From the IMG/VR virus record IMGVR_UViG_2681813205_000009: 6,274 nucleotides of DNA; one strand, written 5' to 3'. The stretch is from a virus (lineage: Duplodnaviria > Heunggongvirae > Uroviricota > Caudoviricetes). The notes under the pieces were generated by a model. The model worked only from the letters and a program-made list of their open reading frames with translations. It did not search any database and had not been told where the DNA came from. Below, piece after piece: positions 1-6,214 of this stretch. The number at the start of each line of letters is the position of its first letter. The stretch's first letter is position 1. The translations under genes were made by a program, and so were the position numbers.

Positions 1-151
1 AGGTAACCGCCTCCCCTTTTTCATTCAGCTCATTGCAGAAAAAATACCGCTCACCACCCTGTACCGTCAGGTCGATTTCCCAGAGTACCACCCGCGGTGA
101 CTGCTCTGATTTAACCGACTCGTTCAGGCTTTCTTCATGAATATTCTGCAT
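1..151 (-). CDS. L: Minor tail protein L, N-terminal ~50 codons only (gene continues beyond the window's left edge)
   Basis: Manual minus-strand translation from ATG at 151..149 gives MQNIHEESLNESVKSEQSPRVVLWEIDLTVQGGERYFFCNELNEKGEAVT, closely matching the N-terminus of lambda gpL as I recall it (MQDIRQETLNE...VVLWEIDLTEVGGERYFFCNEQNEKGEPVT). The start overlaps the M stop in an ATGA arrangement. Not in the ORF track because it is truncated. Confidence 0.85.
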   Translation of the reverse strand, partial: MQNIHEESLNESVKSEQSPRVVLWEIDLTVQGGERYFFCNELNEKGEAVT

Positions 152-492
152 CAGTTCACCACCTGCTCAATCGTACAGCTGAAATCACTGTACCGGGCGT
201 TATCCGTGACGCTCCACTCCCGGCACACCACCCTCACCGTCCGGTTATGTTTCGGCGGTCGCCACAAAAAGGCACGGTAACCACCATGCCAGGATAAAAA
301 TTCATCCAGCCAGCGCCGGGTTGACTCATCCGTCACCCGGAACACCGCCTGAAACGTCTTCAGTTGAGGATTCAGCCCTGTGGGGCGACGCTGTTCATAA
401 CCGTCACCAAACCGTACCCTCGCCACCGACGGTTTCTCACTCACCTGCATCCCTTCACGCGGGACCAGATGCAGCGTTTTTATCTCAGCCAC
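151..492 (-). CDS. M: Minor tail protein M (113 aa)
   Basis: ORF track 151..492(-). Clear similarity to recalled lambda gpM (VRFGDGY, LKT, HGG..FLW.PP, C-terminal EQVVN). The start is GTG at 492..490, with an in-frame TGA immediately upstream so no ATG extension is possible. GGAGGAA Shine-Dalgarno lies about 7 nt upstream. Overlaps the tape measure stop by 8 nt (GTGGCTGA). Confidence 0.9.
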   Translation of the reverse strand: MAEIKTLHLVPREGMQVSEKPSVARVRFGDGYEQRRPTGLNPQLKTFQAVFRVTDESTRRWLDEFLSWHGGYRAFLWRPPKHNRTVRVVCREWSVTDNARYSDFSCTIEQVVN

Positions 493-3400
493 TCAGCATT
501 CCTCCGTCACGTCGCATGGACAGCATCACCGCCTGCACCCGCTGGTCAATCAGCTGCACAAGACTGCCTGCCGCCTCCGGCCCTATCTGGCCATTAGCCC
601 CGTCATTCTGAATGGCGATGTGGTAGACCGGGGAATACACCAGACCGGCACTGCCGTTCATACTGCCCACCGCGCGTACGCCCAGCGAGCCATCCGCCGC
701 CCGGGTCAGGGGCATAATGGCTTCAGGACCGGCCTCCCCCATCAGTCCCGCCCCTTTTGCAAAGGCAAAGTACGTGGGCGTATCCACAATACTGTTGCTG
801 TACGCACTCAGGTTTGCCGAGGTATACACGCCGCCTTTTGCATTGGCCACCGCCCCGCCCAGCCAGTCACCAATGCTGCCGAGAAATCCTCCCGCACCGG
901 ACATACCGTTTGCCGCCGTCTTAATTCCGTTGACAATCGCGGCATTCATAAGAACTTTTGATATTTCCTGCAGCACTGATGAGGCCCAGCTGCGCCATTC
1001 CACTTTATTTCCGTTCAGCATCTCCGTGATGTTATTCACCATCCCTGAGATACCCTCCGTCGCAAGCTGTGCTGCCTGTGAGGCGTAATCGGACGCATTA
1101 TCCACCCAGTTACTGAATCCCTCCTGCAGCCCTTTCTGCCAGTCCGCACGCTGCACATCCGATTCGGCATAAAAGGCTGCCTGGTCCTTAAGGCGTTCGC
1201 TCAGATACTGCGCGTTCTGTGCCCGTGCCTGTCTGTAAAAATCCTCACTGATATCCCCGGTCTGATACTGAGACTGAAGGTCCGCATCCTTCTGGCGGAA
1301 GCTGTCGCGGATCTGCTGCAACTCCCGCATGCGTTCTCTGGCTCGTTCCCCCTGCCCGTACCCCAGCAGTTCAGCATCATTCGACGCACGCGCAGCCGCA
1401 TTCTCATTCTTCAGTGTCTCTTCCCGGGATCGCAACTGTTCCCGGATTTTTTGCTGGTCAATCAGGGCCGCATTACGCAGCAGCTCCTGCTTCTGCATCT
1501 CCGTCAGGGTTTTCAGTTCGCCCTGCGCAGTCTGGTATTTCAGCTTCGCCAGCTCTGTATTCTGACCCGCCAGTGCCAGTTGCTCTTTCTGCTGCTTCAG
1601 TAGCCGGGAAAAACTGTCTTCCGCTTTTTCCGTCTCTGATTTTCTACCCCGGGATTTAGGTTTGTTCGCCTCGTTATTACGCCAGGCTTCCAGAGCATTA
1701 CTGATATAACGCTGTCTCGCCTCCTGATACGAATCCCCCACAAAACCAAGGTCATCCGCCGCATACCCCAGCCGGGCACGCTCTTTTTCCTCCCCCTTCA
1801 GTCGGGACAGGGCCAGCTCACGTTCTGTTTTTGTCAGGGCGCTCTGCTGTTTATCATCCAGGGTGGCCTGCGGCAGCCGTAACGGTACATTCACCAGTCC
1901 CTGACGCTGCTGAAGCAGTTCATTCCCCAGCCCCAGCAGACGGTTGAATTCCGTATGCTGACCGTTCATAACCAGCATGGACTGGTACACCTTATTCTGC
2001 TCTGCCGCCTGCTGACGAATTAACGCCACACGACGGTCTTCCAGCCCGGCAAGCACATCCTGAATGGACTGCGCTTTTTCCTGCATCTGTGCCAGACGGG
2101 ACTGCTCAACGGCAAGCTGCTCTGTTGCCTGAGCAAGCCCTTCCGTTACGGTCTTCACCGAGGTCAGATGGTTTATCATGAATCCGTCACCGGTCGTCCA
2201 GCCCGGGTTCGCCAGAACATACTGATATCCTGCGATTTTTTCCTGCAGGGATTTCACCCGACTGGCCTGTTCATCAATCAGCCGGTTCTGCTCTGTCAGC
2301 GCCGCCCGTGTTCGTCCTTCATTATCTGAGGCTTCAGGCAAAGACATTGACGGCGTTTTATGCGCGATTTCATCTATCGTCAGTGCATACTGGCGCGCAG
2401 ACTCCCTGGCCTGCTCCTGATTCTGGTACAGCGTGTACCATGCTGCAGCCCCCAGCATCACCAGTCCGGGTACGCCACCAACCAGCCCCAGCGCACCGCT
2501 CATCAGACGTGAGCCCACCGCCGTTGTACTGTTCAGCGCATTCTGGGCGGCGCTTCTGGCAGCAATATTTCTGTTCAGGCGTTCCTGTGTGGCCGCCAGA
2601 CGGGCCTCTGCAGCAATCTGCATCTCCGTCCCGCGGGCTGCCGCCACGGCCTGCTGAGCACGGTACACGGCTGCCCTTGCCCGCGCCGTGGCAATCTGCG
2701 TTCCCCTGAACTGTGCTTCCGCCAGTGCCACTTCATTACGTGCTGCCGTCACAAGTCCTGCCGTGGCAGACACCGCTCCGGAGGCCATATTGCCAAAGTA
2801 CCGGGCAACCCCGACGGCAACCAGCGCGCCCACGGCTGTTGCCACATTATCAATCTGTCCGGCAACACCGTTCAGCATGCCGGAGAGCGTTTTTGTCACC
2901 CCGCTGGCCTCATTCGCACCGCCCACCCAGGCCATAAAGGCGTTTTCCACCTTTGTGATACTACTGGAAACCGTTTCCGGCATGGCCGCATATTCATCAC
3001 GTAATATCCCCAGCTGGCTGATTAACGCGGGGACCACTTTATCCGCTGTCAGTTTTCCGTCATCCGCCATTGCCTTCAGATCTTTACGGGCCACGCCCAT
3101 ACCCGCAGCCAGTGCACGTACGATCCGGTCACCACTTTCATTGACCGAATTAAATTCCTCACCGCGTAACACACCCTGTGCCAGCGCCTGGCTGAACTGG
3201 GTGATCACCGAGCCCGCCTCTGCCGTACTGGCACCGGAGATTTTCAGCCCCGTGGAAATGGCCTCCGTCACCTTCAGCACATCATCAGCACTGTAACCAT
3301 ATTCACGCATTGAGGCTGCCGAGCGGGCAAACAGGGCCGCATTATCTGAAAATGCCGTGCCCGTCCGCTGACTGATATCCATCAGCACTTTCTGTGATGA

Positions 3401-3727
3401 CGAAAATTCATCAGATGACTGCGACGCCTGTTTCAGACGGGCATTCACGGAACTCCACTCATCAGCCAGTGAAATCAGGTGTCCGGTGGCAAAGGCACCG
3501 GCAAATGCGCCAGCCATTCCGACAGCAGAACCGCGAATTTCCGTCAACTGGCTGTTCAGTTCTGCCAGGGCACGTCGCTGCTCCCGGGCTGCCGCAGCGG
3601 CCTGACGCCCGCCATTCTGCAGGGTCCGGTAATATTCACTGCCCATACGGGAAGCACGCTGGAGCTCCGACTGGAATGACTGTGAATTTGCCGAAATTTT
3701 GATAATCAGTTCACGTAACGTCGCCAT
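485..3727 (-). CDS. H: Tail tape measure protein (1080 aa)
   Basis: Longest ORF in the window, positioned between the G-T chaperone genes and M. Ala/Gln/Arg-rich, predicted alpha-helical central region; hydrophobic Gly/Ala-rich segments (e.g. LMSGALGLVGGVPGLVMLGAAAWYTLY). The C-terminal tail (NDGANGQIGPEAAG...RRDGGMLSG) resembles the recalled lambda gpH C-terminus (NNDGTNGQIGPAAL...MRDGGLFSG). The N-terminal ~250 aa looks like a generic tape-measure N-terminal domain rather than lambda H. GAAAGG Shine-Dalgarno precedes the ATG at 3727. Confidence 0.95.
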   Translation of the reverse strand: MATLRELIIKISANSQSFQSELQRASRMGSEYYRTLQNGGRQAAAAAREQRRALAELNSQLTEIRGSAVGMAGAFAGAFATGHLISLADEWSSVNARLKQASQSSDEFSSSQKVLMDISQRTGTAFSDNAALFARSAASMREYGYSADDVLKVTEAISTGLKISGASTAEAGSVITQFSQALAQGVLRGEEFNSVNESGDRIVRALAAGMGVARKDLKAMADDGKLTADKVVPALISQLGILRDEYAAMPETVSSSITKVENAFMAWVGGANEASGVTKTLSGMLNGVAGQIDNVATAVGALVAVGVARYFGNMASGAVSATAGLVTAARNEVALAEAQFRGTQIATARARAAVYRAQQAVAAARGTEMQIAAEARLAATQERLNRNIAARSAAQNALNSTTAVGSRLMSGALGLVGGVPGLVMLGAAAWYTLYQNQEQARESARQYALTIDEIAHKTPSMSLPEASDNEGRTRAALTEQNRLIDEQASRVKSLQEKIAGYQYVLANPGWTTGDGFMINHLTSVKTVTEGLAQATEQLAVEQSRLAQMQEKAQSIQDVLAGLEDRRVALIRQQAAEQNKVYQSMLVMNGQHTEFNRLLGLGNELLQQRQGLVNVPLRLPQATLDDKQQSALTKTERELALSRLKGEEKERARLGYAADDLGFVGDSYQEARQRYISNALEAWRNNEANKPKSRGRKSETEKAEDSFSRLLKQQKEQLALAGQNTELAKLKYQTAQGELKTLTEMQKQELLRNAALIDQQKIREQLRSREETLKNENAAARASNDAELLGYGQGERARERMRELQQIRDSFRQKDADLQSQYQTGDISEDFYRQARAQNAQYLSERLKDQAAFYAESDVQRADWQKGLQEGFSNWVDNASDYASQAAQLATEGISGMVNNITEMLNGNKVEWRSWASSVLQEISKVLMNAAIVNGIKTAANGMSGAGGFLGSIGDWLGGAVANAKGGVYTSANLSAYSNSIVDTPTYFAFAKGAGLMGEAGPEAIMPLTRAADGSLGVRAVGSMNGSAGLVYSPVYHIAIQNDGANGQIGPEAAGSLVQLIDQRVQAVMLSMRRDGGMLSG

Positions 3728-3743
3728 TCACCTTTCTCCGGGC

Positions 3744-3768
3744 AAAAAAACCTGCCACAGCAGGTTTT
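3744..3768 (-). terminator. Terminator-like hairpin in the T-H intergenic region (possibly bidirectional)
   Basis: Minus strand reads AAACCTGC-TGTG-GCAGGTTT followed by TTTTTTTGCC: an 8-bp stem with a 5-bp GC core (plus-strand arms 3751..3755 and 3760..3764), a 4-nt loop and a T-run. It sits in the 50-nt gap between the T-frame stop (3778) and the tape measure start (3727). Confidence 0.45.
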
Positions 3769-3777
3769 CATCATTAT

Positions 3778-4457
3778 TTATGACATTGCTGCAAAGCTCA
3801 GCGCGTCTTCCAGCGCCGCAAACGGATCTGACTCCACTTTATCCTCATCCTCGCCCCAGCAGAGCATGGCGTCCTCCAGTGAAACATTCATCCCCTGCGC
3901 CCCGAAAACCGCTTTCACGATCTGCGCATTACGGATATCCCCGCGCTCATCGCCCAGCGGGGACACCCTGTCGAACTCCATCCACATCATCGCCTCGCTC
4001 GCACTCAGACTGTGGCCCAGTTCGGATAAGGTGCGCCCCAGACGGAGCGCAAGTCGCATCAGAAAGCGAATTTCCGGGCGGGCTACTTTTTTCTGGCCGA
4101 CTCTGCATCAGCGATCAGTTCCAGTGCCTGACGCAGCAACCGGGCATGTACCGGACCATAGACGGCCAGCACCTGCTCACGGTCGTCCGGAGTGAACACC
4201 CGCTGCAGATCCGTATCACACAGGACATCGCAGAACAGCGTCACATCCGCTTCCAGGTTACGGCGGGTTTTCGCCACCACCGACAGGGTATCGTCATCCT
4301 CTCCATCACCATTGAGCACTTCCTGCCACAGATACCAGGCCTCTGCCGAAGGCTCCCGCAGCACCACGCTGACATTACCCCATTCCGGCACCTTCACCGT
4401 TTTATGACGAAACCCTGACAGTCTGGCCAGCGCCAGCGTTTTCAGATCCTTTTTCAT
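3778..4457 (-). CDS. Tail assembly chaperone G-T fusion made by -1 programmed ribosomal frameshift (about 226 aa)
   Basis: The G frame ends ...ARKK-TAG at 4083..4085. Slipping -1 at A_AAA_AAG (4086..4092) continues as VARPEIRFLMRLALRLGRTLSELGH..., which is exactly the ORF-track T-frame ORF 3778..4059. The T frame has no ribosome-binding site or independent context of its own. Position between major tail and tape measure genes matches the conserved G/GT arrangement of long-tailed phages. Confidence 0.8.
4083..4457 (-). CDS. Tail assembly chaperone G (about 124 aa from ATG 4457; the track ORF extends to 4505)
   Basis: ORF track 4083..4505(-). I prefer the in-frame ATG at 4457 (MKKDLKTLALARL...): it lies 14 nt after the major tail stop and is preceded by AAGGGGA. 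The 4505 start would overlap the major tail gene by 34 nt and add an Arg-rich leader. Acidic segment (NGDGEDDD) and terminal slippery heptamer are typical of G-like chaperones. Confidence 0.8.
   Translation of the reverse strand: MKKDLKTLALARLSGFRHKTVKVPEWGNVSVVLREPSAEAWYLWQEVLNGDGEDDDTLSVVAKTRRNLEADVTLFCDVLCDTDLQRVFTPDDREQVLAVYGPVHARLLRQALELIADAESARKK
4086..4092 (-). other. -1 programmed frameshift slippery heptamer A_AAA_AAG
   Basis: Minus strand reads GCC AGA AAA AAG TAG. The heptamer A AAA AAG (the same motif as the E. coli dnaX shift site) sits immediately before the G stop, and the -1 frame stays open for 102 codons to 3778. Confidence 0.8.
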
Positions 4458-4471
4458 GATGACCCATCCCC

Positions 4472-5188
4472 TTATCCGGCGGCTGCGCTCACTGTCACGG
4501 TGCATTCAACAGACGTCACACTCTGTGCTTTCTCTGCCGAATCGGTCACCACGCAGGTATATTTCCCCGCATCAGCGGACTGCGCACCTGGCTTACTGAA
4601 GGTGTCTGTCGTCTGCCCGTCAACCGGCTGACCATCCTTCTTCCAGGCGTATTTATACGGCGGCGTTCCCCCGTTGGCACTGACTGACATTGTCAGCAGC
4701 GCACCTGTATTCACGGTAAGTGTTTTATCCAGATTTTTCACAAACGCCAGCGGTACCACAAAGGACACCGGTTTGCCTTTCATACGCAGTGAAAACGTTG
4801 CTGCCACCACGCCGTTGGTACCGGATGACCAGGTGTGCTGACGCACTTCCGCCAGGAACTTAAAGCCCTTACCGGACGGAAACAGCACCTTAAACGCATA
4901 CAACGCGTCATTGTCATAGGCATCACGCAGGGCGTTCTGGGCCTGATTCAGATAAAAATTACCCGACATGGAAATCTCAGACGACGCCCCCAGACCGTTG
5001 ATGTTCTCCTGCTCTGTGGAGCAGAGCGTGGTCACATCAATATCCTGTTTCTGACCGGCGGTGAACTGGACTTCCTTGATGGTGCAGTCCAGGCGCAGAT
5101 ATTCCGCCTTATCCATAGTTTCAGCAGTCGCCGGGGCAGATGAAATCATCACCTGCGTCAGCTGTGAGCGTTCATACAAAGCAGACAT
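4472..5188 (-). CDS. Major tail (tube) protein with C-terminal Ig-like domain (238 aa)
   Basis: ORF track 4472..5188(-). Strong AGGAGG Shine-Dalgarno 4 nt upstream of ATG 5188. Lies immediately upstream of G/G-T, the conserved major-tail position. The C-terminal ~80 aa carry an immunoglobulin-type motif (YKYAWKKDGQPV...DAGKYTCVVTD), as seen in Ig-like decorations of phage major tail proteins. Confidence 0.88.
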   Translation of the reverse strand: MSALYERSQLTQVMISSAPATAETMDKAEYLRLDCTIKEVQFTAGQKQDIDVTTLCSTEQENINGLGASSEISMSGNFYLNQAQNALRDAYDNDALYAFKVLFPSGKGFKFLAEVRQHTWSSGTNGVVAATFSLRMKGKPVSFVVPLAFVKNLDKTLTVNTGALLTMSVSANGGTPPYKYAWKKDGQPVDGQTTDTFSKPGAQSADAGKYTCVVTDSAEKAQSVTSVECTVTVSAAAG

Positions 5189-5204: not shown

Positions 5205-5225
5205 AAAAAACCCGCACGCGGCGGG
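5205..5225 (-). terminator. Terminator-like hairpin in the intergenic region upstream of the major tail gene
   Basis: Minus strand reads CCCGC-CGCGT-GCGGG followed directly by TTTTTTATTA: a 5-bp all-GC stem (plus-strand arms 5211..5215 and 5221..5225), 5-nt loop and T6 run, about 17 nt upstream of the major tail AGGAGG. Confidence 0.4.
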
Positions 5226-5254: not shown

Positions 5255-5599
5255 TCACACCGTGACCTGAAACTCCAGGGTTGCACGGTAACAGCGGTTT
5301 TCCGGAATATAGTCCTGCATTTCACTGACGGATCCCGGGGCCAGCAGCATTATGGCTTCACGGGCGTCCTGACGTATCTGACGCGCCTGCGTCACAGTCC
5401 CGGCATAAACGTCTATCTGCACCGACACTGAGGACTCCGCCTGCCCGCCCATCACGTCCGCCGACACCGATGAAATCAGGCTGAAAACCACCCACGGAAG
5501 CGCCACCGACGGCCTGCCATCCAGCAGGGGGACCACATACGGGTACACCTGCCCGCCGGCAAGATGCGCCAGATGAGGATACAAATCCGCCTCCGTCAT
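5255..5599 (-). CDS. Tail terminator / tail completion protein, lambda U position (114 aa)
   Basis: ORF track 5255..5599(-). Size and position (immediately upstream of the major tail gene) match the tail-terminator slot. The N-terminal pattern (VYP...DGRP...PWVVF) resembles what I recall of DUF3168-type tail terminator proteins. Start ATG overlaps the upstream stop as ATGA. Family assignment is from memory, not a search. Confidence 0.65.
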   Translation of the reverse strand: MTEADLYPHLAHLAGGQVYPYVVPLLDGRPSVALPWVVFSLISSVSADVMGGQAESSVSVQIDVYAGTVTQARQIRQDAREAIMLLAPGSVSEMQDYIPENRCYRATLEFQVTV

Positions 5600-6042
5600 C
5601 GTCTCAGTACCTCATCAATGGCCCGGTTCATCCGAGCAATCGCCACTTGCGCTGCCTGTTCACTGCGCACATCAAACGCCGGACGCACAAACGGGTGCGG
5701 TGGCATATTCACGGTCCCCATTTCCACAAACCGCCAGTAGAAAGCGTTGCGCGGGTTATCCGCCTTCATGGTGTTATCGCTGTTACCGGTGTCCGGATTA
5801 ACACCCCGGATATGCACACCGGATTCCATCCCGCCATCGCGGGAGCGCCGGGAAAGGACCACCACATTGCGGCGCAGTTTTCCCCTGCGTACCGGTGCCC
5901 GTGACACCACTTCTTCTTTCAGCACATTCGCACCCGCACGGGTTGCCTCACGCAGCACCCGGTTATTTTCCGCACCACTCAGAAGCTGCAAATCGCGGCT
6001 GATGTCCTCCAGCCCCGAAAAATCCAGCAGGGTTTCGATCAT
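5596..6042 (-). CDS. HK97 gp10-family tail-component protein, lambda Z position (148 aa)
   Basis: ORF track 5596..6042(-). GGGAGG Shine-Dalgarno 7 nt upstream of ATG 6042. Conserved-looking C-terminal segment (AFYWRFVEMGT...PPHPFVRPAFD) resembles the HK97 gp10 family as I recall it. Positioned two genes upstream of the major tail gene. Confidence 0.7.
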   Translation of the reverse strand: MIETLLDFSGLEDISRDLQLLSGAENNRVLREATRAGANVLKEEVVSRAPVRRGKLRRNVVVLSRRSRDGGMESGVHIRGVNPDTGNSDNTMKADNPRNAFYWRFVEMGTVNMPPHPFVRPAFDVRSEQAAQVAIARMNRAIDEVLRR

Positions 6043-6184: not shown

Positions 6185-6214
6185 ATGATATCTTTTTAAC
6201 GGATAATCTGTCAA
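6185..6214 (-). promoter_or_regulatory. Candidate sigma70-type promoter reading into the tail genes
   Basis: Minus strand has TTGACA (complement of 6214..6209), an 18-nt spacer, then TATCAT (complement of 6190..6185): a perfect -35 and a 5/6 -10. It lies inside the only AT-rich island of an otherwise GC-rich window. Predicted start near 6178, about 136 nt upstream of the ATG at 6042. Confidence 0.35.

Follow-up and report, generated by a model that had tools for sequence, protein, structure and literature searches.

The word moron was coined for gene 15 of phage HK97, and the classical definition of a moron, a cassette made of promoter, gene and terminator, counts the terminator as part of the element (as given in the part of PMC3594210 that summarises Juhala et al. 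2000). In the HK97 record (AF069529) a 'terminator, putative' is annotated at 8398..8422, between moron gene 15 and H, the gene encoding the tape measure protein (TMP), and in HK544 a 'rho-independent terminator' is annotated at the same place, after moron gene 15. The late transcripts of Stx and other lambdoid phages depend on Q-mediated read-through of terminators (PMC7547250), and the same paper cites a Term-seq dataset for EHEC Sakai (GSE143631).

In this work, we analysed a 6.3-kb stretch of DNA, hereafter called the window, whose sequence matches the tail module of E. coli prophages that are long-tailed and Stx-converting, or are lambdoid relatives of these, with 97-98% identity to Stx1a phages, YYZ-2008 and phage 2851. 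Between its T and TMP genes lies a hairpin that, judged by its letters, its folding and its occurrence in relatives, is genuine, terminator-shaped and well conserved. It is an ordinary kind of element, and its position is already annotated as a terminator in HK97, the model phage for tails of this type. Our preferred reading, to which we give a probability of about 0.6, is that positions 3744-3768 form a Rho-independent terminator-type hairpin, a putative stop for RNA polymerase without Q that would be read through by polymerase with Q. The basis of this reading is the structure of the hairpin, its position and strand, its conservation with covariation, and its association with a slot for cargo genes.

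The hairpin and its surroundings in the tail operon

All the tail genes are carried by the minus strand of the window (Table 1). The slippery heptamer found directly 5' of the stop codon of G (TAG at 4085-4083) is the canonical G-T -1 frameshift site, and after it the -1 frame is open past an ATG at 4059 as far as the T-frame stop (TAA at 3780-3778). RefSeq and PGAP records enter T as a separate gene started at an ATG and not as a G-T fusion. The gap between T and TMP is 50 nt long and contains the hairpin, and the TMP N-terminus that follows is conserved across 170+ loci. When window positions 3660-3860 were used as a query against complete E. coli genomes, this type of junction was found at 2907 places in 1245 of 5426 genomes (about a quarter), with at most seven per genome, and at six places on plasmids; the query stretch itself is present with 100% identity in strains 2013C-4187 and 12089.

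Table 1. Features of the tail module discussed in the text, with positions in the window
Feature	Position	Strand	Evidence or remark
Second terminator-type hairpin, CCCGC-CGCGT-GCGGG + T6, upstream of the major tail gene	5205..5225	-	-7.5 kcal/mol
Major tail gene	about 5188..4472	-	
Tail assembly chaperone G, 124 aa	4457..4083	-	Pfam Phage_TAC_1, E = 1.1e-61, full length; YYZ-2008 annotation
Slippery heptamer A_AAA_AAG, end of G	4092-4086	-	Read directly from the sequence
T frame of the G-T chaperone fusion, via -1 frameshift	4092..3778	-	Pfam Phage_tail_T, E = 1.5e-18
Intrinsic-terminator-type hairpin	3744..3768	-	Sequence, folding, comparison with relatives
A4	3768-3765	-	
Core 5' arm, CCTGC	3764-3760	-	
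Loop, TGTG	3759-3756	-	
Core 3' arm, GCAGG	3755-3751	-	
T7 tract, then GCCC	3750-3744	-	
Shine-Dalgarno (SD) sequence of TMP, GGAG	3739-3736	-	8 nt before the ATG, just 3' of the T tract
TMP gene, 1080 aa, N-terminus MATLRELIIKISANSQSFQ	3727..485	-	Annotated so in YYZ-2008

On the coding strand the whole gap reads TAA-ATAATGATG-AAAACCTGC-TGTG-GCAGGTTTT-TTT-GCCC-GGAG-AAAGGTGA-ATG, and the hairpin RNA, from 3768 to 3744 on the minus strand, is 5'-AAAACCUGC-UGUG-GCAGGUUUU-UUU. The original prediction had placed a terminator-shaped hairpin at 3744-3768, between the G-T chaperone genes and the TMP gene; the inverted repeat is indeed there, and sequence and folding confirm both its shape and its place, the loop TGTG having been quoted in minus-strand letters. 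The folding energy, which had been proposed as a check, is -6.3 kcal/mol for the core stem CCUGC/GCAGG (5 bp, 4 of them G-C, with a 4-nt loop) and -10.7 to -12.1 kcal/mol for the stem of 9-10 bp with the A-U extension, the first four T of the T7 tract being able to form four A-U pairs with the A4. The 66-nt intergenic context folds with -18.1 kcal/mol (z = -2.7), and 1 of 200 shuffles was equally good.

Compared with the usual range for intrinsic terminators (stem of about 5-14 bp, loop of 3-8 nt), the structure lies within it, at the short and weak end, and an uninterrupted U7 follows directly 3' of the G/C core on the minus strand. The orientation is that of a terminator of the tail operon, as the hairpin is on the same strand as the tail genes and between the T stop and the TMP ATG. 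The extended stem begins 9 nt 3' of the T-frame stop, and hairpin plus U7 end 16 nt 5' of the TMP ATG (3727), upstream of the SD, at whose position relatives keep GGAG or GGGTGA.

Taken as a single sequence, the window gives modest evidence, because terminator-like sites are no commoner in it than in shuffles (5 versus 4.4 +/- 2.1 in a consensus scan). The same scan reports 3744-3768 on the plus strand only; the site is absent from the minus strand list because the stem extension of the scan consumes the T-run. It is comparison among relatives, and not the window by itself, that provides the excess over chance. Scanning the whole window against Rfam at E <= 10 returned sub-threshold chance matches only, the best one over the hairpin being rsmX (19.5 bits against a gathering score of 56, E = 2.4), and that over the 5205-5225 hairpin being isrK (18.2 bits). 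Other identities were considered and rejected: a small ORF through the hairpin (ATGATGAAAACC...), since the T7-T9 length polymorphism among near-identical prophages breaks its frame; a protein-binding operator, since close relatives alter the letters of the stem while the pairing stays; and an RNase III site, since a stem of 9-10 bp is too short for one.

The stem-loop of the second hairpin of the operon is at 5225..5211. In close and distant relatives alike, homologous matches to it occur about 1.47 kb 5' of the TMP start, and in HK542 a rho-independent terminator is annotated at the place equivalent to 5205-5225 of the window; around the major tail gene, terminators are annotated in both the HK97 and HK542 records. 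The suggestion made beforehand, that the tail operon is punctuated before both the major tail and the TMP genes, is therefore borne out by the conservation of this second hairpin and by the HK542 terminator. Together, the hairpins at 5225..5211 and 3768..3744 bracket the segment containing the major tail, G and T genes. The 15 nt of the second hairpin are identical to the T|TMP hairpin of a prophage in a Chania MAG (L161), possibly by chance.

Other signals were seen elsewhere in the window. The strongest terminator-like hairpin is at 271-290 on the minus strand (GGCATGGT-GGTT-ACCGTGCC followed by TTTTTG, -11.8 kcal/mol) and is located inside the coding sequence of a minor tail gene (ORF 151..492), not in a gap. 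The sole sigma-70-like match (6214..6185, minus strand, TTGACA-18-TATCAT, 11/12) is upstream of a gene of the HK97 gp10 family (ORF 5596..6042), on the coding strand, and transcripts starting from it in a lysogen would head toward both hairpins. The EHEC prophages Sp9, Sp10 and Sp12 encode HnrS, a 66-nt Hfq-binding sRNA that ends at an intrinsic terminator and is described in PMC13502914 and PMC7547250 as lying 'within the late genes'; as regards a link with HnrS, the window scan gave no promoter-like site upstream of the 3744-3768 hairpin.

Conservation of the hairpin and the cargo slot before it

The close relatives comprise 81 IMG/VR prophage loci in which the TMP N-terminus is 97-99% identical, and their T-to-TMP gaps fall into three alleles: AAAACCTGC-TGTG-GCAGGT(7-9), GAGAACCGC-TGAG-GCGGT(7-8), and the first of these with a TTTG loop. 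Between the first and second alleles one U-A pair is missing from both arms (CCTGC/GCAGG versus CCGC/GCGG), with pairing kept, and in a variant AATCGC...GCGGTT a single change produces a G.U wobble. The loops (TGTG, TGAG, TTTG) and the spacer before the SD vary freely. AACCGC-TTCG-GCGGT(7-8), in a gap of 45-46 nt, is the version seen in more distant relatives (about 73% DNA identity). The T-run after the hairpin ranges from T7 to T9 among the near-identical prophages (L002-L081, about 1480-1490), as expected from slippage. In Salmonella phage FSL SP-016 (KC139516, L085) the deposited TMP CDS begins 81 nt (27 codons) downstream of MATLRELIIK (1252 vs 1333); the conserved MATLRELIIK start is directly 3' of the hairpin and SD, and from its sequence the deposited start is probably mis-annotated.

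For the family-wide survey, HK97-type TMP starts were taken from GenBank phages and from one genome per species (78 loci), the end of T was placed by tblastn, and the 60 nt before the TMP start were scanned with one unvarying set of criteria (4 or more stem pairs, of which 3 or more are G-C; a loop of 3-8 nt; and 5 or more T among the 8 nt that follow the final G-C pair). The junctions came from prophages of E. coli, Salmonella, Klebsiella, Serratia, Kosakonia, Pantoea, Pseudomonas, Aeromonas and others. A coding-strand terminator call at 60 nt or less from the TMP start was obtained for 70 of the 96 distinct junctions (73%), compared with a background elsewhere in the same loci of 0.76 per kb, that is 0.046 per 60 nt (about 4.6% expected), a rate that counts other genuine terminators too. 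A lack of conservation in relatives had been named as the observation that would speak against the original prediction, and the 70 junctions show the opposite.

The calls are distributed by the length of the T-to-TMP gap as follows: 31 of 33 distinct junctions with gaps of 277-1127 nt, where cargo is present; 32 of 39 with gaps of 28-52 nt, which leave no room for a gene; 2 of 19 with gaps of 27 nt or less, both weak and inside T; and all five of those in which the end of T was not located. These gap classes are not independent of the hairpin, as a gap of 28-52 nt is essentially hairpin plus RBS. The hairpin stands right before the TMP SD in the 31 cargo-bearing junctions with a call (94%), versus about 55-64% of the 58 cargo-free junctions that have one (32-37/58). 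A Watson-Crick hairpin is present in 37 of the 39 gaps of 28-52 nt, and five of the seven without a terminator call keep the stem with a decayed U tract. In these five cargo-free lineages, from Pantoea, Silvania, Rahnella and Yersinia (L112, L125, L134, L157 and L158, about 1455-1503), the G/C hairpin is intact and the T-run has decayed, as in GTTTATAGGG and TGTATATGGG. Either termination was lost there recently or the stem-loop has a role independent of the U tract, and the loss may hint that selection keeps the stem-loop itself rather than termination. Nineteen distinct junctions, together with lambda and HK022, have no hairpin of any kind, and thus the hairpin is not essential for tail assembly.

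The junctions contain 43 distinct hairpin sequences, and the differences among them include G·U wobbles, compensatory changes and indels made in both arms. Members of the CCCGC group share one stem from Kluyvera to Pseudomonas, with loops that differ in both sequence and length. In a covariance-model alignment, for which a model built from one subgroup was searched over 90 sources, 93.7% of the cells are paired, five of six pairs are changed on both sides and 26 cells are doubly changed, values reached by 0 of 500 shuffles; this alignment is structure-fitted and includes some hairpins from other positions, so that the enrichment within 60 nt is the less circular statistic. The covariance-model alignment was used for pair counts because MAFFT alignments of the junctions misplace the paired indels.

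The T|TMP junction is a hot spot for cargo, seen in loci L085-L175 (gaps of 277-1127 nt), with two genes in some slots. The long gaps hold at least 16 unrelated families of small genes, with 30-43% GC versus mostly 50-60% in the flanks, among them YebO-like relatives of gp15, several lipoproteins, secreted cysteine-rich proteins, a 296-aa protein and a membrane (TM) protein with a zinc ribbon. An example very close to the window is locus L004 (IMGVR_UViG_2645727539_000014, 960-1440; 98% TMP identity), where the gene for a 137-aa lipoprotein (MKKLMPLIFSAVFFLTGC..., lipobox LTGC, weak PEGA match) stands between the T stop and a CCTGC/GCAGG hairpin. The GC content of this gene is 42%, that of T 57% and that of TMP 56%, and a related lipoprotein occupies the same slot of an Erwiniaceae prophage (L175). 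Just before the hairpin, about 18 nt of the window (AATAATGATGAAAA) resemble the sequence 3' of the lipoprotein gene in L004 (AATAATATGCTGATGAATAAAA).

Cargo families and hairpin types show a many-to-many association. The CCGC-TTCG hairpin is 3' of zinc-ribbon cargo in six junctions and alone in two cargo-free ones (L082, L083); three cargo families precede the CCTGC stem, which is also found alone, as in the window; and two to six different stems are seen with each of the zinc-ribbon, lipoprotein and YebO-like families. By comparison with these loci, the window has the well-known moron slot of HK97-type tails in an empty state that retains the terminator hairpin of the slot. Its gap contains neither an extra gene nor an ORF, since the one frame that is open across it shifts with the T7-T9 length, and the window scan found no sigma-70-like site in or near it; the hairpin, for its part, sits where the moron terminators of HK97 and HK544 are annotated.

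Unlike a terminator borne by a cassette, the hairpin is also present in many cargo-free junctions and is common to unrelated cargo genes, and with this distribution a backbone element fits better than a cargo-borne one. We hold only tentatively, and with more doubt than belief, the stronger proposal that the hairpin is a fixed backbone element of HK97-type tail modules and no moron's part, a terminator pre-installed before the TMP RBS. If that were true, the T|H junction would be a safe harbour, in which promoter-plus-gene cargo placed upstream is automatically insulated from the tail genes. This would account for the many unrelated cargo genes at the T|H junction, and would be a modest revision of the view of morons as self-contained promoter-gene-terminator cassettes.

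Possible roles of the hairpin

In the mechanism that we propose, RNA polymerase lacking the late antiterminator Q would transcribe the gap, the CCUGC/GCAGG stem would form, and the transcript would be released at U7, 16 nt before the TMP ATG. Unmodified polymerase could come from leak-through at tR', from spurious internal promoters or, in relatives, from the own promoter of the cargo gene, and the stop would keep TMP and the tail genes beyond it from being expressed in the lysogen. In lytic growth, polymerase carrying Q would pass the hairpin; the stem-loop would then stay in the polycistronic late mRNA, where it may block 3'-to-5' exonucleases and prolong the life of the major-tail/G/T segment. 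As late transcription is Q-antiterminated, a terminator at the T|TMP junction should act mainly on unmodified polymerase. Termination may be weak, given the short core stem (5 bp, -6.3 kcal/mol), and since the gap of the window has neither cargo gene nor promoter there is no obvious local transcript to terminate. Termination, read-through with Q, and the insulating and stabilising roles are what we infer from the comparison of sequences.

The exonuclease step of this mechanism overlaps with the possibility, raised in the original prediction, that the hairpin serves stoichiometry or mRNA stability, and that possibility is a live rival. The hairpin would then tune expression during lytic growth, as a leaky terminator and/or a barrier to 3' exonucleases, so that the mRNA of the major tail and G/GT genes outnumbers or outlives that of the TMP/tip segment, which would match the very different copy numbers needed of tail proteins. 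We consider such tuning rather unlikely as the main role. It stays live because the hairpin is kept in 32-37 of 58 distinct cargo-free junctions, because in five lineages the stem is retained and the U tract is not, as would suit a stem-loop acting post-transcriptionally, because two conserved terminator-type hairpins flank the major-tail/G/T segment, and because terminators are annotated on the flanks of the major tail gene in HK97 and HK542. Moreover, ribosomes enter T only by a rare frameshift, so that the hairpin would be preceded by about 300 nt of RNA largely free of ribosomes. However, Q-modified polymerase is expected to ignore a weak terminator, as is established in lambda biology (PMC7547250), and the same stoichiometry is reached without a hairpin by lambda, HK022, Proteus phage Pm34 and Xenorhabdus prophages, in which T and H overlap or are 8-26 nt apart.

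It is less probable still that the hairpin is a neutral relic, the leftover terminator of a deleted cargo (moron) gene, with no present function. The likeness between the window and L004 just before the hairpin would be explained by an indel that spared the 3' flank of the cargo, the terminator lies inside the moron by the classical definition (in the part of PMC3594210 cited above), and U tracts are decaying in some lineages. Nevertheless, many cargo-free lineages with different stems have hairpin and U tract intact (32 of 39 gaps of 28-52 nt), the stem of the E. coli clade alters only by paired indel or G.U wobble while loop and spacer vary, the CCCGC stem is kept from Kluyvera to Pseudomonas despite differences in the loop, and cargo families do not go with particular hairpins in the many-to-many association described. 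The breadth and the pattern of this conservation disfavour a pure relic.

The window hairpin had also been described as a bidirectional terminator, which would in addition stop antisense (plus strand) transcription into the chaperone genes; the A-rich run before the stem and the plus strand entry in the consensus scan give it this look. In a strand test in which hairpins were found with no rule on their flanks, at least 6 T were downstream in 31 of 37 cargo-free and 28 of 29 cargo-bearing hairpins, and at least 6 A were upstream in 11 of the 29 cargo-bearing hairpins, as the bidirectional proposal would have it, but in none of the 37 cargo-free ones. When a single imperfect pair was allowed (G.U or A.C), four stems had a G.U pair on the coding-strand RNA and none an A.C pair; on the other strand these wobbles are A.C mismatches. 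Since the T-run is kept and the A-run is not, and G.U outnumbers A.C by 4 to 0, the constraint is on the RNA of the tail operon. On the plus strand of the window, no more than U4 separates the stem from a following CAUCAUU, and neither the ORF list nor the promoter scan of the window gives a credible plus strand gene or promoter nearby. This part of the original prediction thus fails: a bidirectional role is very improbable, and by these comparisons the look is a peculiarity of the A-run in the window allele and the element is unidirectional.

The least probable proposal is a translation-coupled attenuator, in which the T stop codon would be within the ribosome footprint of the 5' arm, ribosomes frameshifted into T would mask that arm, and polymerase would continue, tying TMP transcription to GT synthesis: the T stop is indeed followed at 0-13 nt by the core stem in each of the 32 cargo-free junctions that have a terminator call, but terminators close after stop codons are common in compact genomes, HK97 and 30 other junctions, all of functional phages, have T separated from the hairpin by an entire cargo gene, so that coupling is not required, and Q-modified polymerase should read through regardless.

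Comparison with known systems

For the window, the outcome is one unannotated and ordinary intrinsic-terminator-type element added to the tail operon, which has little weight. In the family, the T|TMP junction is a recognisable cargo slot bounded by a conserved terminator-type hairpin; the slot helps annotators to find small prophage-expressed genes, such as those for superinfection exclusion proteins and lipoproteins, and the hairpin helps in the correct placement of TMP start codons. In addition, filled and empty slots with one and the same hairpin are a clean natural system for separating insulation from mRNA stability in Q-antiterminated late operons.

In our preferred reading, that of a putative stop for polymerase without Q, the hairpin is like the tR' of lambdoid Stx phages, in that an intrinsic terminator within the late transcription unit stops polymerase without Q and should be passed by polymerase that carries it (PMC7547250). 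However, tR' is directly after pR' and is a regulatory switch, whereas the window hairpin is kilobases inside the operon and, unlike tR', has no known short stable RNA product. The T/H junction of lambda has the same gene order as the window (V, G, G-T frameshift, H), but there T (which ends at 10549) overlaps H (which starts at 10542), leaving no gap and no hairpin; HK022 and Proteus phage Pm34 have 19-nt T-to-TMP gaps, also with no hairpin.

The closest counterparts are the terminators annotated in HK97 and HK544. The gap of the window lacks the extra gene and the promoter-like site of a moron, and so is not one, although its hairpin corresponds to the terminator end of the cassette that was defined for the T|TMP junction. 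HK97 has the gene for its 62-aa gp15 (YebO-like) and a promoter region between T and the hairpin, whereas the window has only the 50-nt gap, and the stems differ as well (CCCGCT-ATCA-AGCGGG in HK97 versus CCTGC-TGTG-GCAGG). As in HK97 and HK544, the hairpin of the window has a short G/C stem, a tetraloop and a tract of T7-8, with 12-16 nt to the ATG; it lies 3' of the G/GT chaperone genes and immediately 5' of the SD and ATG of an orthologous TMP (80.7% identical in its first 150 aa).
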